Shown here: positions 2,222 through 22,503 of the stretch, piece by piece | How positions within the stretch are numbered: the stretch's first letter is position 1 | Layout: the number at the start of each line of letters is the position of its first letter | DNA from: Oligoflexales bacterium | Lineage (GTDB): Bacteria; Bdellovibrionota_B; Oligoflexia; Oligoflexales; RGVZ01 | Length of the DNA stretch: 41,579 nucleotides | NCBI GenBank assembly: GCA_044236265.1 | Contig: JBIIGV010000011.1 | Span: forward strand, 1-41,579 | Reading direction: 5' to 3' | Program-made: the position numbers and the translations under genes | The notes under the pieces: generated by a model | The model's database searches: none | What the model was told of the DNA's origin: nothing | The model's input: the letters and a program-made list of their open reading frames with translations, nothing else

Positions 2222-3364
2222 TTAGGCTGCTGGACGCTTCCATTGTCTTGTAGGTCGTGTAATGACCTCATATTCGAGCTTTATATGCCTGTAATACATT
2301 GAGATGGCCCCGTCTTCGTATATGTGGATGGAGATGTCCTTTTTTCGAAGGCTTCCCATGGTGCGATCTATGATCCGGTAAAGTTGATTCTCAAAATGGA
2401 CTGTATGATCGCTATGGATCTGGCGTATGTGTTTTATACAAAAGATTTCGTCTAAATTTTCATGAGGTAAAAGAGCTCTGTACCGTGAGTGCTGGTCTCG
2501 AGGTTTGACGGTGTTTCTTTCCTGCCAGTATTTAGGCAAGTAAACCTGATCAAGGTACCTATTGGCATCGAGCATGGAGGTGACCCCGTTGAGTCGTAGT
2601 TCAGGGACTAGGCGGTCTTGCGTAGTGCGCCAGGCTCGCTCAATACGGCCTTTAGACTCAGCAGAGCTAGTGGTGATAACTCGAATACCAAGCTCCTCAC
2701 AGGCTCTCACAAATTGGCTGAAGCCTCGACGTTTTTCTCCTCCGCCAGCCCATCCTGCTTGATCCGTATAAATCATTTGTGGAACACCTTTAGACTCAAT
2801 CAGCGCCCGCAATAGCTTCATACAGGCAATGGTCGTCTCCCCTTCAAAGAATTTTGCCGCGGGAATTTCACTCGTAGCATCGTCAATCATGGCGATCAGG
2901 CACCACTCATCCCTGCCATTCCATTTGTGATGAGAGCCATCCATCTGTAGCAGAAGCCCCTCGCAGGACATACGCTCTCGATGTACTCTCGCTTTGCTGG
3001 TTCTGCGACGTTTGTGCTTACCAATCCCTGCCTCTCTGCACCATCGATGAAAGGTTGTATAGCTGACAGTTAGGCCATGGCGTGCAGCTAGCATCTCGAG
3101 GCAGTGAGAGATGTTGAAATCGTAGTATTGCTCACGCGCTAATTTGAGCATTTGATCGCGACAGCTTTGATCTAATCGATTCCTAGCAGGCTTCTGATAA
3201 TTGCCGTGCTTGATGCCTTCAATGCCCTTCTGCCTAAGTTTCCTTACCCGACGCGAGATCGCTCTCTCACTACAATCCAGAAACTCAGCTGCCTGCCGGC
3301 GGCTTAACAATCCCGATCTAAAATCCTCCAAGATCCTTAGAGCCACTGCCTCGTTCTTAGACAT
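2222..3364 (-). CDS. DDE transposase, IS1202/ISNCY family
   Basis: N-terminal HTH (RRQAAEFLDCSERAISR), then LQMDGSHHKW, CLIAMIDDATS, IYTD and SKGRIERAWRTTQDRL. A strong SD (AAAGGGAGGT) precedes ATG 3364. Confidence 0.92.
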   Translation of the reverse strand: MSKNEAVALRILEDFRSGLLSRRQAAEFLDCSERAISRRVRKLRQKGIEGIKHGNYQKPARNRLDQSCRDQMLKLAREQYYDFNISHCLEMLAARHGLTVSYTTFHRWCREAGIGKHKRRRTSKARVHRERMSCEGLLLQMDGSHHKWNGRDEWCLIAMIDDATSEIPAAKFFEGETTIACMKLLRALIESKGVPQMIYTDQAGWAGGGEKRRGFSQFVRACEELGIRVITTSSAESKGRIERAWRTTQDRLVPELRLNGVTSMLDANRYLDQVYLPKYWQERNTVKPRDQHSRYRALLPHENLDEIFCIKHIRQIHSDHTVHFENQLYRIIDRTMGSLRKKDISIHIYEDGAISMYYRHIKLEYEVITRPTRQWKRPAA

Positions 3365-3432
3365 AAAGATACCTCCCTTTGGCATTTAGGCCCCTCCAAT
3401 CTGATGGTTAAGATCAGGGGAGCATAGTGGGT

Positions 3433-10710: not shown

Positions 10711-11802
10711 ATGAAAATGAATATGTCTGACTCGCCATTAAAACAGAAACAGGCTGGTGTTTACATCAATGCAAACGACATTGATGTGACTGACGCTAGT
10801 CTTGATCCCACTTTAAGTAAGGTTTGGACAGATGAAACCACCGGCGAGATTGCGGTTTCGGTTGAGCGAGTTCTTTTTGACAGTTTATTGGATGTTGCCG
10901 CCAGATATTTGGAGCCTAATGGGTTTTCGTTGAATCTAGAAAATCTATTGGCGACGATTGACAGTATGAGACTAGGAGTTTTTGCGTCAGTAGCCTCTAA
11001 AAATGGACCCGATGGCCGTGCGGTTGCAAAGAAATTGATTCCAGGTCTTTACATGCATTTGCCGCGTGTCAAGACAGTTGGCCCGACGCTAACCCGTTTT
11101 TATGATGAAATTGGACGCTATGAACGCGAATTGGCTCGACTTCAGGATATTGAAGCGAAGGCAAGAAAAATTGCAGAGGTTTCAGCAAAAGATGAAACGG
11201 GGCGCGCTGCAATCGAAGCTCTGCAAAGTGAAAACCAGGCACTTCGTGCAGAATTAGGACGACTTTCATCACGATTGAATTTGGCGGAACAAGCCCTCAA
11301 ATCGTCTGCCGCAGAGACAGATGGTGATGTGATGCCAAATGGTATCCGTAGCTGCGTGATACGAGCTGTTCGCCCTGCTGAGGGAACGGTGCTGCTGAAA
11401 TCTGGTGAGCAGCAGTTTACCTGCCCTCTTCGACGTCTAGATGGGGTTCCGTCTTTGAACGCACGTGGCCTAGCCTACTATGAGGGTGGTGTTCTTAAAT
11501 CCGTGATGATTTTCGATCCTGCGCCGGCACCATTCGAGTTTCAATTGGCAGATGTCATGGCTGTGGAGGGCCGAAAGATCAAGGTTCGCTACTCAGACCG
11601 CCGCGAAGGTTTGTTGACGATGGCTGCTGATCAAGCGGTTCCCGGCGTCGGTGTTCGAATTATTGCAAAGCTTGCAACTGGTTTTCTTGTCGACATATTA
11701 CCGGTCGCCGTTGCGGGTGACAGCATCATCGCAGATATGGTTTTTGATGAGCAAACCAAGCGTCAATTGAATGAAGAATTTGCGGAGGGTCTCAATGATT
11801 GA
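10711..11802 (+). CDS. Hypothetical soluble protein with central coiled coil; first gene of the motA-motB-helicase operon
   Basis: Long ORF (start uncertain: 10648, 10681, 10711 or 10723) whose stop overlaps the motA start by 8 bp. It has heptad-rich segments ELARLQDIEAKARK and LQSENQALRAELGRLSSRL, and no TM or signal peptide. Confidence 0.8.
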   Translation: MKMNMSDSPLKQKQAGVYINANDIDVTDASLDPTLSKVWTDETTGEIAVSVERVLFDSLLDVAARYLEPNGFSLNLENLLATIDSMRLGVFASVASKNGPDGRAVAKKLIPGLYMHLPRVKTVGPTLTRFYDEIGRYERELARLQDIEAKARKIAEVSAKDETGRAAIEALQSENQALRAELGRLSSRLNLAEQALKSSAAETDGDVMPNGIRSCVIRAVRPAEGTVLLKSGEQQFTCPLRRLDGVPSLNARGLAYYEGGVLKSVMIFDPAPAPFEFQLADVMAVEGRKIKVRYSDRREGLLTMAADQAVPGVGVRIIAKLATGFLVDILPVAVAGDSIIADMVFDEQTKRQLNEEFAEGLND

Positions 11803-12574
11803 AGGCTTAAAGGAGCGCAAATACGTCCAGACCGCGAAAAAGCGCACGGCGCCGATCAGTTTACTCGTGGCGACGGTTATTTTTGCTTTAGTGGTGATGG
11901 CCAGCATTGGAGTTGGCAAAGGCAAGTCCCTTGTTGATATTCGGGGGTTATTGATCGTTGTCGGTGGGACTATGGCTAGTCTGGTGTTCCAATTTGATCT
12001 GATGGTGCTGCTGAAGAGTGTCATGATGGTAGGGCGATCATTTGCTGGTACTCCCGATCGCGAAGTTCAACGGGCGATGCGTGATATTGACCGGGCGATA
12101 ATTGAAGGTCAATCACTGACGCAAATCAAGCGGTCAGATGAACTCACCGGAGAAATATTAGCCGATGTGATCCATATGTATAATCGAGGTCTGACCTATG
12201 ATGAAATCGACGCCTTTGTTACCGGTCGCGTTCAAGATGAGTATTTCGAGAGAGAAATGGCCACAGCGATGCTTCAAAAGGCCTCAATTGTTGCGCCATC
12301 ATTTGGCTTATTTGGAACAGTTATCGGCCTGGTTCAAGTGATGCAGTCCATGTCGTCGCCAGGTCAAATCGGTCCCGCGATGTCCTTAGCTCTCATGACG
12401 ACTGCTTACGGCGCCGGACTGGCTAGTTTACTATTTACCCCACTCGCAGGACGCCTTGAACACCATAATCATATTTACTTAGAGTGTCATAAACAGCTTC
12501 TAAGTAAAATCGGTATTCTTATGAAACGTGACGATCAAAGTTTGGAAACCGTGCGTGAGGTGGTGGCGGCGTGA
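11795..12574 (+). CDS. motA: MotA/PomA-family ion-channel stator A subunit
   Basis: Four TM segments, LIVVGGT, APSFGLFGTVIGLV and IGPAMSLALMTTAYG. SD GGAGG precedes ATG 11795. Confidence 0.9.
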   Translation: MIEGLKERKYVQTAKKRTAPISLLVATVIFALVVMASIGVGKGKSLVDIRGLLIVVGGTMASLVFQFDLMVLLKSVMMVGRSFAGTPDREVQRAMRDIDRAIIEGQSLTQIKRSDELTGEILADVIHMYNRGLTYDEIDAFVTGRVQDEYFEREMATAMLQKASIVAPSFGLFGTVIGLVQVMQSMSSPGQIGPAMSLALMTTAYGAGLASLLFTPLAGRLEHHNHIYLECHKQLLSKIGILMKRDDQSLETVREVVAA

Positions 12575-13227
12575 GACTTCGTGATTTAGAAAATGCTCAA
12601 GTCAGGAGTAAAGAGTCTCCTGTGAATGCATTTTATCTGAGTTTAAGCGACCTCATGACGCTTCTTTGCGTGTTTTTTGCTGTTTTAGTGGGTATGAGTC
12701 GTGTGGATGTTGGCTCTTTTGAGAAAATGAAGACGTCAGTAACTGGTGACTCTAAAGGCACATTGGTTGAGTTGGAGCGAGACCTCAAAAGTATTGCCAA
12801 AGGGCAGAAGGGCGTATCAGTTCGACTTGGGCAGGATGGAGTTCACCTGGATTTTGAAAGTGCCGCGCTGTTCGATACCGGCTCAGCAGTTCTTCGGTCA
12901 GGAAGTCTCGATCCGGCATCACCACTCTTGAAGAGAATTCTTTCAACTAAATACGTTCTGGATATCGAAGGTCATACGGATGACGTGCCACTTTACCGTA
13001 AAGACAAGGTAAAGGATGGCGAGGAAATCGAAACAAACTGGACGTTAAGTGGGCGTCGGGCTAGCAGTGTGGTCAACTGGCTCATCAATTTCGGATTCAG
13101 TGAGTCACGACTGCGAATTGTCGGTTATGCGTCGACAATGCCGAAAGTTGACGTGGGTGACTTGTCGGGAAATCGTTTGGAAGGTGCACGTTCGGAGAAT
13201 CGACGTGTGTCGATCTTGGTTCGATAA
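12571..13227 (+). CDS. motB: MotB-family stator B subunit with OmpA-like peptidoglycan-binding domain
   Basis: TM SLSDLMTLLCVFFAVL carries the conserved Asp, followed by plug-like SRVDVGSFEKM, LFDTGSA, IEGHTDDVP, NWTLSGRRA and NRRVSI. GTGA overlap with motA. Confidence 0.92.
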   Translation: MRLRDLENAQVRSKESPVNAFYLSLSDLMTLLCVFFAVLVGMSRVDVGSFEKMKTSVTGDSKGTLVELERDLKSIAKGQKGVSVRLGQDGVHLDFESAALFDTGSAVLRSGSLDPASPLLKRILSTKYVLDIEGHTDDVPLYRKDKVKDGEEIETNWTLSGRRASSVVNWLINFGFSESRLRIVGYASTMPKVDVGDLSGNRLEGARSENRRVSILVR

Positions 13228-13241
13228 GGCAGGAGCTGTGA

Positions 13242-16200
13242 ATGGGTGCTGAAAGATTGCTGAAATCTGAATCGATTGAAGACGGCCTATCGCTAAACGT
13301 TGGGCGAGGGTTTCGATTTACCCTGACCCGACAACACGATGATTCTGGATTCGAAAATTACATTATTGAGAACACCAGTAAGAAGCAGTTTCTTCGCATT
13401 CCTCGTTTTATCTTTGAAATTTTTAGATCGTCATTACAACAAGTACTTCGCTCGGATGATGCCGTAGAGGAGTCGATCAGTTTTAAAGGTAAGGTGAAGT
13501 TTCGGATTGAAGTCCTACCGGACGGATACTCTATCACTGCCGTGGATAAGCGTGAAGGTGCCGACGGCCAGCTGACGCTCAATCGTGAGGCAGCTGAGGC
13601 TTTAGCAGGACTTTTGCATGATCCTCGTGTTCGGCATGGAAGTGACGTTCTTAGTCGCATCTTGGCTTATCATAGATTGTTTAAATTCACGTTCGCTGAA
13701 GGTAGTGACAGCCTTAACAGCGGGCTAGCTCTGCGGTCTGATGTTCTCAGTCAAGTGGAAGACTATATTCCTCCTGTCGGGCAGCGGGCAGGACAAGTAA
13801 AGCTAAATGCAGATGATAAGGCTCTAGCTCTGAAAATTAGAAGTCATCGTCCTAGCGGTGACGAAAAGCCGAAAGATCTGAAATCTTTCAAAAGTCGTCT
13901 TGGTGAACGAAGTGCCGCGAAAGCTTGGGCGGTTGATTATCAAGCTTTATTTGGATCACAGGATCAGCGTTCAGCTGATCGTCAACCGAAGGTCAACACT
14001 GCTGATAGCGGACGACGCGATGGAGCAGCCAAGCATGTTTGGGAACTCCCTATTCTTGCTTCTGAGGTTCGCTCAATGCGTGGAAAGACCTTGCGATGTG
14101 AGCTTTCCGCGGAAGATGTTCATGAGATGCGGGAGACTTTTTTGACGGGAAGCGACACGGAGTTTTTTGTCGGATTTGATTTGATTGACGTGATTTTCAA
14201 AAGCACATCCGGGAAACTCAAGACATTTAGATTTCCATTGTACTATGCGCCTGTAAGTATTTCTGAGTCGGGTCGGCAAATTCTCTTGGATGGAGAGGCT
14301 GAATCGCGCATCTATTTAAATCACCTGGCTCTCGCGACCCTTGTGCAATCTTTTTCTGGAGAATCCAATCTTGAAGCGGCTGTAGATCAATTTTTCCGGA
14401 CTATTTTGTCCCAGCGTATTGATCATGATGGACGCGTGGGACGTATATATTTATCAAGACAGTTGCCAGTCGCTGACGAAATATTTCATCGTACGCGTGA
14501 GATTATTCTTGGTAATCCTGGTGAAAACGGCAAAGGCGGCCTTCTGTCATCAATGAATATTGTCGGGGCAGAGTGCGACACGGAACGCGTTTGTGTGTAC
14601 AAGGCGTCTAAGATTGTGGGTCCTCTGCAGCGATCGCTTGAGATGGATCTTGAGATGATGCAGGATCTCGCTCATCGAAGCCCTGAGAAGTTTGCGCGTA
14701 CATTGCCGGGCCGTTTTCTAAGTACGACCTTTAAGGACGTGACCAAATCGGCTCGTCTGTTCTGTGATCGTTCGATGACACCAGTTTTCCGTCCGCAGAG
14801 TACTCGGAAGTTGATGGATCGCCTCAACGCCCATGATGTCGTTTTGCTGGAAGGGCCTCCAGGAACTGGGAAGACGTTCACAATTATGAACCTTCTAATA
14901 CACGCGGTATGTACTGGCCAACGGGTCCTCATTGTAAGTGACGCCGATGCGGCGCTACATGCTCTCAATGAGAAGATTCTCGAGTATCTTGAATCAGGAG
15001 CTCATGATCATGGCAGTGATCCTGTTGCGATCTGGAAGCGGGCTGTACAGATGGTTGACAAGCTAGCGGGTGGTCATTCTGATTTAAGTGTATGGTGCCG
15101 TACGATTGAGACCTCTTTGGGTTTGGCGGATAATCGTGAGTTTACGGGCCAAGCAGCAGTGAAAGCAGTCGACCCAAAGGTTATTGAATCGATTGATCAT
15201 GAAATTCAACGCGTGAAAGCCATGATTGCTAAGGTGATGGATGCTCGTATTGGGCCAAAGACCGATTTGCGGCGTCGCGTCAGTCCTAAGCGAGGGCATG
15301 CCACAACGGTGGATGATATCCAGGCCTTTGTATCTTTTTTGAAGTTTATGGGTGGGCGCAGTGAGACGACCAAATCTTCGAAATTAGCACGGATCATGGT
15401 CCGAGATTTTGTACTAGGACGAGAGTATCTCAGCCAAGCAAAAGACAAGGATATGTACGAGACCTTTGCGATACCGGACCGAGTCACTTCGGATCATATT
15501 GATTATATTGAGCAGGCTTTGAAAACAGTTAAGAAACTGCTCGTCCTTAAACCGAAATCCATGGATGAGCTGACAAGAGTGATCGGTTCTCCTTCAGATA
15601 GCCGCGTAAATCGACACCTGTTTGATATTTGGTCGAAGATTTTTCCAATTGGCGAAAGTGGGCTTAAGCAGGCTATCCGTATGGTCAAGAGTATCATTCG
15701 CTTCCCCGGCAAATCCCATTTACGAAAGCTGGAATCACTGCTGTCGTCACAGCTGAAGATACTCAGGGCTTTTGATGCGTTTGAGAAGGGTGTGTGGCGT
15801 CAACTACAAATTATTCATGAGGCACTAGGTCCGTCGTTTAGAGGCGCAGTTCCTCTGTCGTTAGAGGTCTGCAGATTTGCCACGTCGTCAAGTTTTACCT
15901 TTGGGCATGCCGTCGATAGCATGCCAAGTGTTCAAGAGCTTCTTGAGCAACTCCAAGATTTGGATCGTCGAAGATCAGAAGAAGTGCGTAAAACATTTAT
16001 AGCGAAATTGGCTACAATCGTTTCTTCAGCTCATGCATCGAAACAAGGGCAGAGTAATGCCCTTACAGTTATAGGGGGAATGCTGCATGGTCTGAAGGGG
16101 CAAGCCTCGCTTGATGCCTCCAGTGGTTCTTGGCGTGAATTACAGGAAAAACTAATTAGCACGTTTCCGGTGTGGATGTGTCGTAAGCAAGCTGTTTCGT

Positions 16201-17528
16201 TCCTATTCCCTTGTAAGGCAAAGCTCTTTGATCTTGTGATAGTGGATGAAGCGACCCAGTGCCGCGTCGACGATGCCTTGCCATTGATGCTGAGGGCCCG
16301 CAAGTTTATGGTTGTTGGAGACGACAAGCAGACCGTTTTGGCCAAAAATAGTGTAATCGATGATTACTTGTTCACAGAATTTAATTTGGACGAGCATTTA
16401 CGCGGCACCCAGGCTCGCGGAATTAAGGGTGGTGGCAGCCATATCTTTGGGCTTGTGAAAGGGATTAAGGAAGCAAGTGTCATGCTTGATGAGCATTACC
16501 GTTGTCCTCCCGATATCATCGAGTATTCAAATCGATATGTCTATAATAGCGAGTTGAAGGTGATGCAGTGGCGTCGTGCTGGTGAACCTCGAGCGATGAC
16601 GATTGACTGGTCAGAACGGGGTAAGTCCGATAGTCAGCGTCTCGAGACTGGTCAGTACAAAGGTATCGAGACAGATATGGTGGATCGCTATCTCGAGTGG
16701 GTCGCTAACAAAGTAAAAGAGATTGAAAAAGAGACTGGACGCCGAATCAACATGGAGACGGACGTCGCGCTTGTGTACTTTCTACTTAAAAATGAGCCGT
16801 ACATCAGATCAAAGAAATCTGCATTCCTGGAAAAACTGGGTCGCGGGAAGGATGTTTTAGATGGCGCGGGCGCCGCACTTCAGGGCAAGGAACGCCCCTA
16901 TATTTTTTATCTTTGGGATATCAATCGTGGAAATATGATGGCCTTTCGTCATGGAGACGATCCCGACAAACGGAAAGGTGAGTTGAACGTATTGATGAGT
17001 CGTCCAAAGCGACGGGCATATCATTACTTGCATAAGAGATTTGATGAATTAGATCATGAGCGTGCAAGTATCTCTGACTTCCTGTGGCGCGCATGGCGTA
17101 AGCAGGACGAGGGAGAGCAGAAGAAAGAGTTTGTTGAGCGAACCAAGGCACCTGGCCCTGAATTCTTTCCTTGGCGTCGGTCATCAGGGCAGCTGATGAT
17201 TGCCGTGCTGGATCATGTGTTAAAGAAGTCGGCTGTTCAACTGGATCAATCTCGTATTCAGACTGGTGTTGTAGTCGGAGATCCGCGCTTTAAAATAGAT
17301 GTTGTCGTTGGCCCGAAAGACTCCCGCCATCCAAGTATCGGCCTTGTGGATCTTTGTGGGTTTGACTGGCACGAGCGTTGTGCGGACGATATCGTGGACT
17401 ATTATTTCCAGCTCTGCCGCGCTGAGCCAAAAATCAAGCCAATTTTTCTCTTTATCCACGAGATCGCAGATCAACGATCTCGGGGGTTTAGCCGTCTCAT
17501 GCATTGGGTCTTCGGCCAAAAGAATTAA
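13242..17528 (+). CDS. Large superfamily-1 (DNA2/NAM7/Upf1-like) helicase with C-terminal Vsr/REase-like domain
   Basis: Walker A GPPGTGKT (14853-14876), RVLIVS, FDLVIVDEATQ (D at 16245), VVGDDKQ, LDEHYRC, LQGKE and LNVLMSRPK. C-terminus reads FKIDVVV..GLVDLCGFDWH. SD AGGAG; start is 14 bp after motB. Confidence 0.9.
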   Translation: MGAERLLKSESIEDGLSLNVGRGFRFTLTRQHDDSGFENYIIENTSKKQFLRIPRFIFEIFRSSLQQVLRSDDAVEESISFKGKVKFRIEVLPDGYSITAVDKREGADGQLTLNREAAEALAGLLHDPRVRHGSDVLSRILAYHRLFKFTFAEGSDSLNSGLALRSDVLSQVEDYIPPVGQRAGQVKLNADDKALALKIRSHRPSGDEKPKDLKSFKSRLGERSAAKAWAVDYQALFGSQDQRSADRQPKVNTADSGRRDGAAKHVWELPILASEVRSMRGKTLRCELSAEDVHEMRETFLTGSDTEFFVGFDLIDVIFKSTSGKLKTFRFPLYYAPVSISESGRQILLDGEAESRIYLNHLALATLVQSFSGESNLEAAVDQFFRTILSQRIDHDGRVGRIYLSRQLPVADEIFHRTREIILGNPGENGKGGLLSSMNIVGAECDTERVCVYKASKIVGPLQRSLEMDLEMMQDLAHRSPEKFARTLPGRFLSTTFKDVTKSARLFCDRSMTPVFRPQSTRKLMDRLNAHDVVLLEGPPGTGKTFTIMNLLIHAVCTGQRVLIVSDADAALHALNEKILEYLESGAHDHGSDPVAIWKRAVQMVDKLAGGHSDLSVWCRTIETSLGLADNREFTGQAAVKAVDPKVIESIDHEIQRVKAMIAKVMDARIGPKTDLRRRVSPKRGHATTVDDIQAFVSFLKFMGGRSETTKSSKLARIMVRDFVLGREYLSQAKDKDMYETFAIPDRVTSDHIDYIEQALKTVKKLLVLKPKSMDELTRVIGSPSDSRVNRHLFDIWSKIFPIGESGLKQAIRMVKSIIRFPGKSHLRKLESLLSSQLKILRAFDAFEKGVWRQLQIIHEALGPSFRGAVPLSLEVCRFATSSSFTFGHAVDSMPSVQELLEQLQDLDRRRSEEVRKTFIAKLATIVSSAHASKQGQSNALTVIGGMLHGLKGQASLDASSGSWRELQEKLISTFPVWMCRKQAVSFLFPCKAKLFDLVIVDEATQCRVDDALPLMLRARKFMVVGDDKQTVLAKNSVIDDYLFTEFNLDEHLRGTQARGIKGGGSHIFGLVKGIKEASVMLDEHYRCPPDIIEYSNRYVYNSELKVMQWRRAGEPRAMTIDWSERGKSDSQRLETGQYKGIETDMVDRYLEWVANKVKEIEKETGRRINMETDVALVYFLLKNEPYIRSKKSAFLEKLGRGKDVLDGAGAALQGKERPYIFYLWDINRGNMMAFRHGDDPDKRKGELNVLMSRPKRRAYHYLHKRFDELDHERASISDFLWRAWRKQDEGEQKKEFVERTKAPGPEFFPWRRSSGQLMIAVLDHVLKKSAVQLDQSRIQTGVVVGDPRFKIDVVVGPKDSRHPSIGLVDLCGFDWHERCADDIVDYYFQLCRAEPKIKPIFLFIHEIADQRSRGFSRLMHWVFGQKN

Positions 17529-17680
17529 AAATCGGGCAAATAAGGGTTGATCTGCCGGACATTTGTGGATACAAACCCGGACGTTAAGAAGACATTGTTA
17601 TGTGCTTTAACCTGTATAAGCCATTGATCGGAATGGTGTATCTACCGGGCGCCGCAAATGCCCGTCTATAGGAGTGAGAG

Positions 17681-18271
17681 ATGAGAATGTTCGCTCGGAT
17701 TTTGACGTGTTCTGTATTGGCCTCTAGTTTAACCCTTGTATCCTGTGGATCTCGTGACGACGGCAGCATGCTTGCCGGTGATCGTAACGGCAATGATGAT
17801 CAAAGGTCCGATGACGGCAATGATCAGAACGACTCAGGCAAAGGCCACGGTCGCTTTCCAAAGGCTCCCCACAAGGACATGACCCCTGGCTCACTTTGTG
17901 AGAAAGGGAACAAGACCCGTTACCCTGAAAAAGTAAAGTACTGTGAGCGTGATGTTGATACTGAGACAAAGCGCCAAATTTTCGTAGCCTACGATAAAGA
18001 GTTTGGTTACCAGACCACCAAGATGGAGCGAAGTAGCTTTAAGATCGATCACCTTGTTCCGTTGTGCTTGGGTGGAAGTAACGAAGTTGATAATCTCTGG
18101 CCGCAGCACGTCAGTGTCTATGAAAATACTGATCCTCTGGAGCCGTTCTTGTGTGAGGTTTTGTCAGCGGGTCGCATTAAGCAGGCGGAAGCTGTTGAGC
18201 TGATTTTAACGATCAAAGAAGATCCAGAAACTGCCCCTGATGAGCTTCGTAAGCTTGAATCCCGCTTCTAA
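17681..18271 (+). CDS. Lipoprotein with HNH endonuclease motif
   Basis: Lipobox LVS-C, a D/N-rich linker and IDHLVPLCLGGSNEVDNLWPQ. SD AGGAG. Confidence 0.8.
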   Translation: MRMFARILTCSVLASSLTLVSCGSRDDGSMLAGDRNGNDDQRSDDGNDQNDSGKGHGRFPKAPHKDMTPGSLCEKGNKTRYPEKVKYCERDVDTETKRQIFVAYDKEFGYQTTKMERSSFKIDHLVPLCLGGSNEVDNLWPQHVSVYENTDPLEPFLCEVLSAGRIKQAEAVELILTIKEDPETAPDELRKLESRF

Positions 18272-18287: not shown

Positions 18288-18334
18288 GACGCCAGACTTT
18301 GTCCCTTTTGACGGGAGGTCTGGCGTTGTTTTTT
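18288..18334 (+). terminator. Intrinsic terminator between convergent genes
   Basis: Stem gacgccagac/gtctggcgtt followed by a T-run. Confidence 0.7.
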
Positions 18335-20547
18335 CATTGAATCTTAGCATCGCAACTATTAGCCCCGCCGGGTCCACGAACCTTAAAACTGACGTTGGTA
18401 GTTTCCAACGCTTTGCATGGCAGCTCTGGCCAAGACTGAGCCTCATTTAGATGAAAAGCCCGCTCTGATGTCAGTGTGTAGCTAGAGCCTGTCGCTATGA
18501 TTTTGCTGATCCACCATTTCCCCGAGGCCGTCATCCCTAGTAGGTCAGGTTTGCCGTCGCCATCCATATCGAGAGCGGTGACATTCTTCCAATTTATCTG
18601 CGATGACCAAGCTCCCAAAATCTGATCGCTGGTGGATAAACCGAGGGGGGAGCCAAGTTTTATATACCATTTACCGGTGGCTTGGACCCTGCCGATGATA
18701 TCTGCATAACCATCTCCGGTAAAATCAGCGGATAGAATATCAACATAGTTTTGTGATGGACTCCAAGTCCCTGACAGTTGGGTTTTAAACGAAAGCGCTT
18801 TGGGGCGGGCCAGTAGCAAGAACCACGCGCCTTTGATTGCCGAGCGTCCTACGATATCGATTTTGCCATCACCGTTGAAATCCTGGGCGTGAATATTCAT
18901 CCACGGTTTTTTTGCTTCCGGCCAGGTTCCCCAGACTTTCGGAGCCGCGACACTTTGATCAGGGCGTACGAGTGTCACCACCCATTGTCCCAGCTCATTA
19001 AGTTCCGCTTTATCAATGGTCTTGTCTCCGTTGAAGTCTGCATTCAGTTTGGTTGAGTTTGCATTTGGATTAGCCATCGTGAAAATCTTTGAGCTTTCTC
19101 CGTCCCATGCAATGGCCTGTCCTTGAAATTCAAAGTTATCAATTGGTCCCGAGCTCTTATCCCTCTTCAGGGACACCAGACAGCGCTCTGTTTGAGCAAT
19201 TCGCCTGATTTCAATGAGGCATTTTGGGGCGATGACACCTGGGATAGGTGCGCTTTCGCAAGATACTCCTTCGCTAGACGAGCCTTGCAGAGAAGCTGAA
19301 ATGACCGTGGGGGTATTCGATTTACATGTAGCTATCGTTTCCCAGAGGTCAAGTTTCGCAGTCCAAGGGCTAATCAAGGTAGCACTTGTTTTCGGAGTAC
19401 CGATGACTTTATCCCCTGATCCTTTGACCGTCACGCTGCACTTTCCGCCCTCATCAACTCGCGTTGCTGCGATCGAACAATGGGGGCGAGCGTGGCCTGC
19501 ATATTCATAGGGACCAAATCTAAGCTGATATTTAGGATCGGTATCGCCAAAGCCAGAAATGATTCTTTGAATGTCAGCAGCATAATTGGCCGTTCGTGTT
19601 CCTTCGCCTGGGCCGCCCATTGTTACTTGACTCAGTAGATAGGGTGAAATGCCATTTTCATCCCTATAGATGGCAATAGACGGGGATGATGAGTCGCCAG
19701 GAATCATATTTTCATAAAATTTGGCGTAGGTTTTAAGTAGTTCGGAATCTAATGATCCAAAGACTGGATTCCAAAATCTGGCATTCCTGTCACTAAGCTT
19801 CCCGGGAGCTGCCAAAACAAGCAGTGCTTTGGAATCCTGATCTATGCGAAGAACAGGGCATTCAACCACCGGCAGATTTGCGTAAACGAGATCGTCAGGT
19901 TTTACGAGCTTCATCGGCGTGATGCTTCCCGGTAAATCTTGATCAAGTCTAACAACGGTGATGTCAACACCGTAATCGGAGGGGTCATCATTACCGACGT
20001 ATCTTAATCCAGAAACTTTGCGTTCGATCAGGCGATTGTCTGTGGTGAGAAAGCGGACAGTCCCTCCAATCTGAGGGTGATAGCCATAATGCTTTATGTA
20101 AAGAACATGTTTCGGGGTAATGGCCACGCCGCGCGGTCCATTGAATATGTGCGTGACTGCAGCGAGATTAAGGCCATGTATCCAGCTCGAAGTAAGGTGT
20201 TTTGAGGTGTCGCGCCAGACTTTTGATGTTTCAGGATTGGCCTGCGCCAGTCTTTGAGTGATTTCAGAAGAACAGCGCTCATACCAAGTGGTGTTTGCTG
20301 ATGTAGATGAAGCCGAGAGATTCATCTTATCAGTGGCGATGGAATCCTTCTGCTCGGCTTCAGACGGGCTCTTCATCGTTGGCGGAAAGGTATGATGATC
20401 TACACAGCCAACTTCGGGTCGATCCTTGCATAAATATTTTCCTTCGTTATGCGGCTGAGCATCGGTTTTTGTCGAGCTCGACCTCGATCCTGACTGCTTA
20501 CATGACGCAAGGACACTGATAAAAATAAAAATAATTTTAAATTTCAT
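18334..20547 (-). CDS. Lipoprotein: trypsin-like serine protease, Cys-bonded repeats and FG-GAP/VCBS repeats
   Basis: Lipobox LAS-C after ATG 20547. Triad motifs ITPKHVLYIKH, DITVVRL and PGDSSSP. Repeats DFNGDKTID, DFNGDGKIDIVGR, DFTGDGYADIIGR and DMDGDGKPDLLG. Confidence 0.8.
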   Translation of the reverse strand: MKFKIIFIFISVLASCKQSGSRSSSTKTDAQPHNEGKYLCKDRPEVGCVDHHTFPPTMKSPSEAEQKDSIATDKMNLSASSTSANTTWYERCSSEITQRLAQANPETSKVWRDTSKHLTSSWIHGLNLAAVTHIFNGPRGVAITPKHVLYIKHYGYHPQIGGTVRFLTTDNRLIERKVSGLRYVGNDDPSDYGVDITVVRLDQDLPGSITPMKLVKPDDLVYANLPVVECPVLRIDQDSKALLVLAAPGKLSDRNARFWNPVFGSLDSELLKTYAKFYENMIPGDSSSPSIAIYRDENGISPYLLSQVTMGGPGEGTRTANYAADIQRIISGFGDTDPKYQLRFGPYEYAGHARPHCSIAATRVDEGGKCSVTVKGSGDKVIGTPKTSATLISPWTAKLDLWETIATCKSNTPTVISASLQGSSSEGVSCESAPIPGVIAPKCLIEIRRIAQTERCLVSLKRDKSSGPIDNFEFQGQAIAWDGESSKIFTMANPNANSTKLNADFNGDKTIDKAELNELGQWVVTLVRPDQSVAAPKVWGTWPEAKKPWMNIHAQDFNGDGKIDIVGRSAIKGAWFLLLARPKALSFKTQLSGTWSPSQNYVDILSADFTGDGYADIIGRVQATGKWYIKLGSPLGLSTSDQILGAWSSQINWKNVTALDMDGDGKPDLLGMTASGKWWISKIIATGSSYTLTSERAFHLNEAQSWPELPCKALETTNVSFKVRGPGGANSCDAKIQ

Positions 20548-20727
20548 GTGATTCGTCCTGCAGAATCCTGTCCAACTTAATCTGAGCTGATTATGTTGGT
20601 TTTGGCTCCGGTTGGCGATTTCCAAGCCATTTGATTGGCGTTAGAATTTTAGCATGGCACAGGGAAATAGGGTAAAATAAAGGCGTGGATTCTGTTTTTT
20701 TGTGCTCATTTCAAAGGAAATTTTTAG

Positions 20728-21237: not shown

Positions 21238-22503
21238 ATGGACGCAACAGAGCAATTCGTCGAGTTTGACAAAACGTTGGTTGCTGCAGCCAAGGGTATC
21301 AAGGTGCTAAGTGCTCTTGGTTGGGGTGAGCAGACAGCTCATGATTTTCTACATGGGTGGCGAAACGGAAATGTTCAGCTACCGCAGGTTGAGTATCCAA
21401 AGTTTGACTATAGTGAGCAAAAGCAAATTTTAAAAACGATCATCGACCGCGCAAGTAGTGATCATCCGGTCGGCGTGTATTTGGCTGAGACTGCTCACAG
21501 TTATTACGTTGCTGCGCAGATGCTTGAAGGACTTGGGACGGCTGCATTTCGAGAGTGCAGCGAGGCTTTGTACGGCAGGCCAGACGAGTCTTTGGGAACA
21601 CTCTCAAATCTGGAACTTGCAGATGACTTTATCCGGATCACAAATGACTTTGCTGCTGTCATAGATTTTAATGACGATATGGGAGTGTTGCCTAGCACTG
21701 AGACGGCTAAGAAGATTAAGTCTAGAGCTGATGATTTCTTCCAAGATTACAAAATCAAAGTGCTGGTGGACGAGGAATTAACAAGTAAGGCAGCCGCTGG
21801 AAGTGAGCGCGTTCGCGTTCGTGGCAATTCCACCTTCACTTTGGCAGAAATTGAGCAACTTATTCAGCATGAGGTTTTTGTCCATTCGGCCACGATGCTC
21901 AACGGAAGACGCCAGCCCTGGCTCAAATCTCTGGGTCTAGGTGCGCCGCGCACGACGGCCACTCAGGAAGGATTAGCTACGTTTGCGGAGCTTATCACCG
22001 GGACGATGGATTTAGGCAGGCTTCGTCGTATCGCTTTGCGCATTAAAGGTATTCAGTATGCTTTGGATGGCGCGGACTTCCTGGAAACATTTAAATTTTT
22101 CTTGAATGCAGGGCAGTCGGAGCTGGAGAGTTTTCAGTCTGCAGCCCGCATTTTCCGAGGCGGTGATATTAAGGGGCGGCAAGTCTTTACCAAGGATGGT
22201 GTTTATTTGCGAGGTCTCATATCGGTACATACGTTCTTGAGGAAGGCCATTCAGGAGCGAAAAATTGATTATCCACAGAGGCTATTTGCTGGACGACTGA
22301 CGATCAGTGATGTTGTGAAGATGGACGGTTCCTTTGAAGACGGCTGGATTACCCCAGCGCGTTATCTTCCGGCGTGGGTTTCGAACCGGCAAGGTTTGGC
22401 AACCTATCTTTGCTATAATGCGTTCTCGCATCGTCTAAAGCTTGAAGAAATTCGCCTTGAGGATTTTGCACAAGGTATGCGTGACTTGTCGGCGGTAGAT
22501 TAG
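21238..22503 (+). CDS. QEGLA-motif protein (DUF1704/MATCAP-like metallopeptidase)
   Basis: HEVFVH, TTATQEGLA and FTKDGVYLRG. Confidence 0.9.
   Translation: MDATEQFVEFDKTLVAAAKGIKVLSALGWGEQTAHDFLHGWRNGNVQLPQVEYPKFDYSEQKQILKTIIDRASSDHPVGVYLAETAHSYYVAAQMLEGLGTAAFRECSEALYGRPDESLGTLSNLELADDFIRITNDFAAVIDFNDDMGVLPSTETAKKIKSRADDFFQDYKIKVLVDEELTSKAAAGSERVRVRGNSTFTLAEIEQLIQHEVFVHSATMLNGRRQPWLKSLGLGAPRTTATQEGLATFAELITGTMDLGRLRRIALRIKGIQYALDGADFLETFKFFLNAGQSELESFQSAARIFRGGDIKGRQVFTKDGVYLRGLISVHTFLRKAIQERKIDYPQRLFAGRLTISDVVKMDGSFEDGWITPARYLPAWVSNRQGLATYLCYNAFSHRLKLEEIRLEDFAQGMRDLSAVD

Follow-up and report, generated by a model that had tools for sequence, protein, structure and literature searches.

We identified a four-gene operon that places a stator-type ion motor beside a large helicase in a 41,579-nucleotide stretch of DNA from an Oligoflexales bacterium (NCBI GenBank assembly GCA_044236265.1, contig JBIIGV010000011.1, positions 1 to 41,579; C130 in our numbering, and hereafter the window). 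The four genes appear to form a real and undescribed motor-coupled helicase system, whose role is possibly anti-phage. All lie on the plus strand and encode, in order, a protein of a putative new family (ORF1, 10723..11802, 359 amino acids (aa)), a MotA/PomA-type stator A subunit without a tail (motA, 11795..12574, 259 aa), a MotB-type B subunit (motB, 12571..13227, 218 aa) and a superfamily 1 (SF1) helicase (13242..17528, 1428 aa). In this operon a plug-and-OmpA stator of the flagellar clade persists in cells that have no flagellum; its rotor contacts have been rewritten, and three folds of the single-strand-binding type are attached to it. The best reading of the genes is probably a surveillance system for nucleic acid, coupled to a motor and assembled independently.

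Gene order and conservation of the operon

A preliminary description of this DNA had proposed four same-strand, coupled genes within non-coding borders, and our reading of the open reading frames (ORFs) and their junctions confirmed this layout. The ORF1 stop (TGA, 11800-11802) lies beyond the motA ATG at 11795, giving an 8-bp overlap; motA and motB have the GTGA at 12571-12574 in common; and a 14-bp spacer carrying AGGAG separates motB from the helicase ATG at 13242. The operon is flanked by 213-225 bp of non-coding DNA upstream and 152 bp downstream. Two in-frame starts, 10711 (ATG, 363 aa) and 10723, are available for ORF1, and 10723 is most likely the true one since the homologues begin at its Met. 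Among 30 window ORFs scanned with Pfam, none belonged to a flagellar, chemotaxis, Ton or Tol family; the remaining ORFs were judged by eye. This agrees with the absence of such genes noted earlier.

The order ORF1-motA-motB-helicase was kept in 52 of the 52 loci that extend 3 kb or more upstream of the helicase (74 loci, six-frame reading), indicating that the four genes are one conserved unit whose arrangement is far beyond chance. These loci comprise 25 from Oligoflexales and 27 from a metagenome clade, and several are near-duplicates, so they do not represent 52 independent events. The helicase thus adjoins motAB in every testable locus and in two phyla, which answers the question raised in the preliminary description of whether the gene order recurs in unrelated genomes. 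We then searched the 94 genomes of the order and found matches to ORF1 in 41, to the MotA family profile in 41 and to helicase residues 1-500 in 41, the last becoming 42 of 130 across the phylum, with one in another order. All three were present in 39 of the 94 genomes and none in 52, among which are whole genera; three fragmented genomes were short of one match. We did not find even the flanking marker in five genomes of genus g43 without the operon, so no empty site was readable.

The second phylum contributes a clade in marine Gammaproteobacteria. By protein search, full-length helicase homologues with 64-68% identity over residues 960-1300 were found in Microbulbifer, Gilvimarinus, unnamed Gammaproteobacteria and a Myxococcota metagenome-assembled genome, the last known from its helicase match and not from flanking genes, and further homologues occurred in Exilibacterium, Pleionea and Thalassocella. 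Since the helicase is recorded in the cultured Microbulbifer rhizosphaerae, Pleionea sediminis, Exilibacterium tricleocarpae, Thalassocella blandensis and Pseudobacteriovorax antillogorgiicola, experimental work is possible in tractable hosts. In a metagenome scan with the marine gamma clade, 39 of 41 loci were genuine. The gamma clade forms one group in the helicase tree (support 100) on a long stem, a placement that does not prove a donor in an unrooted tree. Its operons sit in many different neighbourhoods and have a lower GC content than their flanks in 12 of 14 loci, and the cassette appears to have moved between phyla as a whole block.

Some copies are irregular. The helicase is split over two frames at L035 7075-11438 (genome G007) and L042 4400-8658 (G010), by frameshift or assembly error, and the motA of G091 contains one internal TGA. 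Genome G077, a bin with 5% contamination, holds two divergent operon copies on contigs C121 and C174 (L056 and L057), for which duplication, transfer or binning error are possible.

The motor subunits

We compared the two motor subunits with stators of known type. MotA matched PF01618 (5e-19), with MotP/PomA as its best NCBIfam model, below the cut-off. All 10 hits of its profile in the PDB were PomA/MotA chains (PomA best, 2.4e-27) with no ZorA among them, and PADLOC gave no ZorA model match. The protein ends about 35 residues past its PomA-aligned core and has no tail, as expected from its earlier assignment as a short, tail-less flagellar-type MotA/PomA. MotB (12571..13227, plus strand) carries a transmembrane helix with Asp27, a plug helix, a very short linker and an OmpA-like peptidoglycan-binding domain; Pfam reported MotB_plug at 31 bits (cut-off 24) together with OmpA, and Asp27 was present in 30/30 and 32/32 family rows. 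The plug helix aligns with that of Clostridium MotB, relative to which ~28 linker residues are missing, and the distance from the Asp to the core is 106 residues, as compared with 115 and 171 in the other MotBs of the same genome. The closest solved chains were MotB, PomB and MotS (2.8e-23), while the ZorB chain 8vvn_B reached just 1.4e-7 and the ZorB models matched weakly (1e-12 to 1e-3). Because there is no tail, the plug is kept and the nearest solved chains are PomA, MotB, PomB and MotS, the motor appears to descend from flagellar (PomA/MotB) stators and not from ZorAB. Stators with a plug and an OmpA domain belong to the flagellar clade (FIT/TGI4 class) in the available text of a published survey (PMC12505986). 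The motor would be predicted to assemble as MotA5B2.

The Na+ site of PomA is formed by three threonines, according to the accessible part of PMC10374538. Their equivalents in MotA, Thr175, Thr202 and Thr203 (PomA T158, T185 and T186), were invariant in 58/58 rows, so the motor is likely Na+-coupled. The positions that contact FliG, all taken from one hidden Markov model alignment, have changed: the PomA Arg88 position is hydrophobic in 57/58 rows, the Glu96 position is Arg in 54/58, and the D114 position is mostly Gln, Lys or Arg in Oligoflexia rows and Glu in 26/29 gamma-clade rows. The remaining three MotAs of the source genome retain the Arg88 equivalent. New charged residues have become invariant on the cytoplasmic side (D99, D124 and E137, with R245 in 57/58), which would imply another conserved partner, other than FliG, for this face of MotA. 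The operon stator also has an extra conserved N-terminal motif relative to flagellar stators.

These changes bear on whether motA and motB are an extra flagellar stator pair that merely lies beside an unrelated helicase. The pair does have the sequence and domain layout of flagellar FIT stators of the PomA-like class, many carriers are flagellated, and the source genome has FliG and is probably flagellated itself. However, five carriers (91-96% complete, two single-contig), picked for a weak or absent FliG_C match, retain the operon and have no flagellin, and in four of these five the operon MotB is the sole MotB_plug gene. Together with the loss of the FliG-contact charges and the 52/52 linkage, this makes an incidental stator pair highly improbable and a flagellar role almost excluded; the operon motor is apparently not for swimming.

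In the stretches read, the source genome carries three further MotA-type genes outside flagellar clusters (L049 6707-8202, L050 9334-10967 and L051 8448-9239). At L049 the MotA/MotB pair shows all three Na+-site threonines along with a short MotB, and no motB adjoins the motA of L051.

The helicase and ORF1

The helicase matched AAA_11 above the Pfam cut-off and AAA_12 below it, and the nearest solved structures to its core were IGHMBP2, Sen1, Dna2 and UPF1, in line with its first assignment to superfamily 1. Fourteen helicase-motif residues were invariant in 75/75 dereplicated homologues, and the motifs that we take to be Walker A, DEAxQ, GDxxQ, HYR, QGxE and NVxxSR are intact. The protein appears to be a UPF1-like SF1 helicase with intact ATPase motifs, a family from which 5' to 3' tracking is expected.

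Two further domains flank this core. Residues 12-134 (13275..13643, plus strand) are predicted to form a tandem PUR repeat, of the PUR/PC4/Whirly single-strand nucleic-acid-binding fold. The AF2 model of this segment superposed on Pur-alpha (3k44) with Z 12.0 and a root-mean-square deviation (rmsd) of 3.0 over 118 aligned residues, and its six top Foldseek rows were all PUR-alpha (E 2e-3 to 1e-2). At the other end, residues 1295-1428 (17124..17525, plus strand) form an REase_MTES_1575/DUF559-like region, for which the first ESM Atlas hit scored 0.91 with 170 shared features and the 10 best hits all belonged to one family or clan. Pfam scans of the N- and C-terminal alignments gave nothing, and hhalign of the C-terminus against MTES_1575-type domains was not significant. 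D1353 was found in 75/75 and D1370 in 74/75 dereplicated homologues; the Glu and His of the usual MTES_1575 motif are replaced, as compared, in an alignment that is not significant, with four true C-termini from neighbouring genomes. The helicase appears to end in a half-degenerate MTES_1575 nuclease-like domain, and the nuclease-like character first proposed for the helicase stood for the fold and the two Asp, and not for the Glu and His. We found no Pfam hit to DUF4011 in 26 helicase family members, and a deeper profile was also negative; hhalign against true DUF4011-type helicases gave a plausible alignment at residues 331-392 that was non-significant (E 0.11).

The AF2 model of ORF1 (pLDDT 80) has an N-terminal alpha/beta domain, a long coiled coil, two OB folds and a C-terminal helix. 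The coiled coil spans residues 121-194 (11083..11304, plus strand; model helices 121-156 and 159-194), and it is followed by tandem beta-barrels at about residues 208-331 (11344..11715, plus strand), of which the second is a clear OB fold. The second barrel superposed on OB domains of SSB, PriB, RPA, MCM and PAN with Z 7.0-8.8 and rmsd ~2 over ~60 aligned residues, a generic level. Foldseek ranked two tandem-barrel proteins first, EF-P and Mpa (interdomain), at E 3e-4 to 2e-3. Pfam gave nothing beyond coiled-coil noise for ORF1 and 88 aligned homologues, an ESM Atlas search returned no usable match, and a viral fold search gave generic OB-type or low-TM rows alone. The family is small and closed, with 139 matches among 1.84 billion representatives, 125 of them at E<=1e-10 and a few being coiled-coil noise, and its relatives are named 'hypothetical' throughout the ten clusters checked. 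Judged by these searches, ORF1 appears to be a new protein family, and we propose that it may act as an adaptor joining motor and helicase. A complex prediction of two MotA copies with ORF1 scored 0.00, which gave no verdict and was counted neither way. Since the soluble parts contain three folds of the single-strand-binding type (OB, OB and PUR), they suggest single-stranded nucleic acid as the substrate.

Comparison with known systems

We next compared the operon with described systems. Zorya types I-III consist of ZorAB with ZorCD, ZorE or ZorFG, and ZorB is without a plug, in the available text of PMC11946911 and PMC11890865; ZorA tails are long in all Zorya subtypes described in the accessible part of the former. 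The operon resembles Zorya in its 5:2-type ion motor with a catalytic Asp, its peptidoglycan-binding B subunit of similar size and its co-encoded soluble nucleic-acid proteins, which in type I include a helicase-nuclease. The transmembrane Asp and peptidoglycan-binding B subunit expected of Zorya are present in the operon MotB, yet they are common to all MotB. Unlike ZorA, the operon MotA has no tail and no ZorA model match; the operon MotB has a plug; the helicase is SF1, whereas that of Zorya is of the SNF2/DEAD type; ORF1 and the PUR domain are without Zorya counterparts; and the motor is nearer to PomA/MotB than to ZorAB. When ORF1, the helicase and the HNH-like lipoprotein downstream were scanned with PADLOC, none matched ZorC, ZorD, ZorE, ZorF or ZorG. 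The operon may act like Zorya but falls outside it on tail, plug and partner genes, and PADLOC made no complete Zorya call, as the preliminary description had expected.

The nearest solved relatives of the motor are PomAB, MotPS and MotAB, with which it shares the plug, the OmpA-like domain, the ion-binding Asp and the three Na+-site threonines. It differs from these flagellar stators in that the Arg88 and Glu96 equivalents are lost or charge-reversed in MotA, the linker is ~28 residues shorter, and the motor is kept in non-flagellated genomes, fixed beside a helicase (0/5 tested carriers with flagellin). The helicase shares a UPF1-like core and an MTES_1575-like C-terminus with Hhe (NCBIfam NF042953), ProA (NF058533), PADLOC PDC-S37 and MkoA/MkoC. 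The best library matches of its core were the anti-phage ProA (1.3e-21) and Hhe (1.2e-19), then PDC-S37 and MkoC, all far below membership: 69 bits against a cut-off of 2000 for Hhe and 76 against 1500 for ProA. It also differs from these proteins by the N-terminal PUR fold, the degenerate nuclease motif, the constant tie to a motor and the lack of a DUF4011 match, so that it is apparently neither Hhe nor ProA. No paper on ProA was found in our literature search. The order of coiled coil and tandem OB folds in the C-terminal two-thirds of ORF1 is that of the N-terminal region of mycobacterial Mpa/ARC (Foldseek E ~1e-3), but the TM-score is low, identity is 12-15%, ORF1 has no AAA domain and the arrangement may be merely common. 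A match to an already described system, a possibility entertained from the outset, did not emerge from PADLOC or from the literature searched, in which the operon is undescribed; large catalogues of predicted defence systems could list it.

Proposed mechanism and alternative roles

Based on these results, we tentatively propose that the stator has been re-wired to a nucleic-acid module that would guard against phage or incoming nucleic acid and be activated from inside the cell. At rest, the plug would hold the channel shut. The helicase, through its PUR domain, and ORF1, through its OB folds, would bind single-stranded DNA or RNA exposed near the membrane, and ORF1 would then take the place of FliG by docking on the cytoplasmic side of MotA, which has been remodelled. 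Docking would free the plug, MotB would anchor to peptidoglycan, and ion flow would turn the MotA ring. The torque might hold, reel or strip the substrate as the helicase tracks along it, and/or an ion leak might arrest the cell; the C-terminal domain would bind or nick and may not be the main effector. ORF1 and the helicase would thus replace FliG as both trigger and load. The mechanical core of this proposal, an ion-driven, exapted stator that works on single-stranded DNA or RNA via an OB adaptor and a PUR-helicase and is switched on inside the cell, outside motility and outside Zorya, seems to us somewhat short of an even chance.

Activation from inside is favoured because the plug is kept, the rotor contacts are lost and new invariant charges have appeared on the same face. 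In flagellar stators, contact of the cytoplasmic face with the rotor is believed to release the plug, in the available text of PMC10374538. Torque is preferred to a bare leak because the peptidoglycan domain is kept. As the plug is kept, which in stators is freed by cytoplasmic docking, and the nuclease motif is half lost, the helicase may by analogy be a sensor rather than an effector.

A signal in the opposite direction would follow Zorya logic by convergence: an attaching phage would distort the wall, peptidoglycan would be gripped by the short MotB, and the turning motor would recruit or activate ORF1 and the helicase-nuclease to destroy the entering genome. MotB is indeed ZorB-sized and aligns end to end with a type III ZorB model (7e-12), its Asp-to-core distance is shorter than in the genome's other MotBs, the ORF1 coiled coil could replace the ZorA tail, and two invariant Asp remain in the nuclease-like domain. 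However, the plug of the operon MotB sets it apart from ZorB, the nuclease Glu and His are replaced, and the same scarcity of defence context applies. A short linker does not by itself imply wall sensing, because normal motility is still seen with a PomB that lacks residues 61-120, the linker behind the plug, with stator behaviour unchanged, in the accessible part of 10.1101/2023.11.13.566875. We therefore regard this outside-in route as unlikely, and the outside-in direction suggested in the preliminary description is not supported so far, given the flagellar plug and the half-lost nuclease motif. Taking both signalling directions together, an anti-phage or defence role has a somewhat better than even standing. 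In its favour are the anti-phage proteins that lead the library matches of the helicase core, though far under their cut-offs, the spread of the entire cassette across phyla, the varied neighbourhoods and lowered GC content of the gamma-clade copies, and the L108 copy set between tRNA-Lys and a Wadjet system.

Several observations weigh against inside-activated defence. PADLOC was run on the neighbours of the operon, covering 149/156 and 139/163 dereplicated ORFs; the ORFs dropped were frames that were short or antisense, fragments of the core genes and certain obvious housekeeping genes. The scan yielded one complete system (Wadjet) and one PDC-S05 gene (L032), and the remaining hits look like generic enzyme cross-matches. 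The Wadjet locus (L108 2895-23000), in which pal-cpoB-queE-queC-tRNA-Lys is followed by the operon and then by a complete jetABCD, is the one clear defence-island setting among the loci scanned, and defence context is scarce. The helicase tree follows host families within Oligoflexales, with Shimodaira-Hasegawa-like approximate likelihood ratio (SH-aLRT) support of 99 for f1, 100 for f5, 100 for f12 and 92 for f3; it came from a quick search, is unrooted, has long branches flagged and leaves f4 and f15 unresolved. Within the order, then, the operon seems to be inherited vertically. It is present in all 12 genomes of the genus, with its site stable, and in four close loci its identity is at the level of housekeeping neighbours (helicase 70-83%, MotB 78-93%). 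GC, GC3 and codon bias of all four genes are ordinary for the source genome (3.25 Mb, 89% complete). No family member was found on plasmids at 1e-20, and viral contigs gave no member and merely 9 distant SF1 helicases. OB and PUR folds are no proof of nucleic-acid binding, and the direction of signalling is argued by analogy with stators. The defence role first suggested for this locus is not supported so far, since a defence island was clear at a single scanned locus and descent in Oligoflexales is apparently vertical.

The same pattern suits a lineage-specific machine outside defence, which would use the ion gradient and wall anchoring to handle nucleic acid, for example in membrane-tethered RNA surveillance, in processing DNA or RNA from prey or surroundings, or in rescuing nucleic-acid complexes that have stalled. 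Vertical inheritance with monophyly at the family level, the fixed site and housekeeping-level identity within the genus, the few defence neighbours and the half-lost nuclease motif are all as this role would predict, and the operon is kept in genomes of 1.9-2.2 Mb without flagella. On the other hand, its absence from 52/94 genomes of the order marks it as dispensable, the cassette was apparently transferred between phyla as a block, and no uptake, secretion or RNA-decay genes were conserved beside it in the loci read. We judge such a role possible, if doubtful, and nearly as likely as inside-activated defence.

To our knowledge, 5:2 ion motors serve in swimming and gliding, in Ton/Tol transport, in type IX secretion and in Zorya. 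If the operon motor acts on nucleic acid, or serves outside defence, it would be a categorically new use of such motors. The operon would represent a second invention of motor-coupled immunity, made independently, or else a new form of membrane-energised nucleic-acid handling. It opens to experiment both the effect of a rotating stator on DNA or RNA and the direction, inward or outward, of the signal.

Neighbouring genes and other observations

At other loci, several neighbours were recorded. A DUF4062-iSTAND gene, an AAA ATPase gene and a WD40 gene lie in a row at L105-L107 (1-3200), about 4 kb upstream of ORF1, and resemble what we take to be a ternary conflict system. A 914-aa SNF2 helicase with DpdE/ZorD core hits (L063 12565-15309, genome G071) lies immediately 5' of ORF1 in the same orientation; we rejected it as an operon part, since it is adjacent in this one locus, 3 kb away in G039 and unseen in the rest. 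True DUF4011/AAA_11/AAA_12/MTES_1575 helicases are encoded at L069 5178-9314 (G039) and L067 4064-8359 (G035), where the neighbours look mobile or restriction-related by eye, whereas the operon has a core setting.

Within the window, a hairpin at 17535..17556, directly 3' of the helicase stop and scored as terminator-like for the minus strand, is a weak candidate for the 3' boundary of the operon; the terminator and promoter scan of the region was at chance level (5 sites found, 7.4 expected from shuffles). A lipoprotein-like ORF at 17681-18271 (plus strand) has a weak HNH match (E 0.003) and lies 3' of the operon in six congeneric loci. We rejected it as a fifth part, since the linkage is confined to the genus, inserted genes occur in three loci and it is absent beside the operon in other families. 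The preliminary description was also correct in seeing no mobility gene attached to the operon: an insertion sequence-type transposase (2222-3385, minus strand; helix-turn-helix and an rve-like core, rve below the Pfam cut-off) lies 7 kb upstream. A 763-aa secreted-looking protein with FG-GAP repeats (18334-20625, minus strand) is absent from the congeneric loci read, and a bacterial MATCAP-family peptidase (21238-22503, plus strand; PF08014, 2e-105) is conserved near the operon within the genus.

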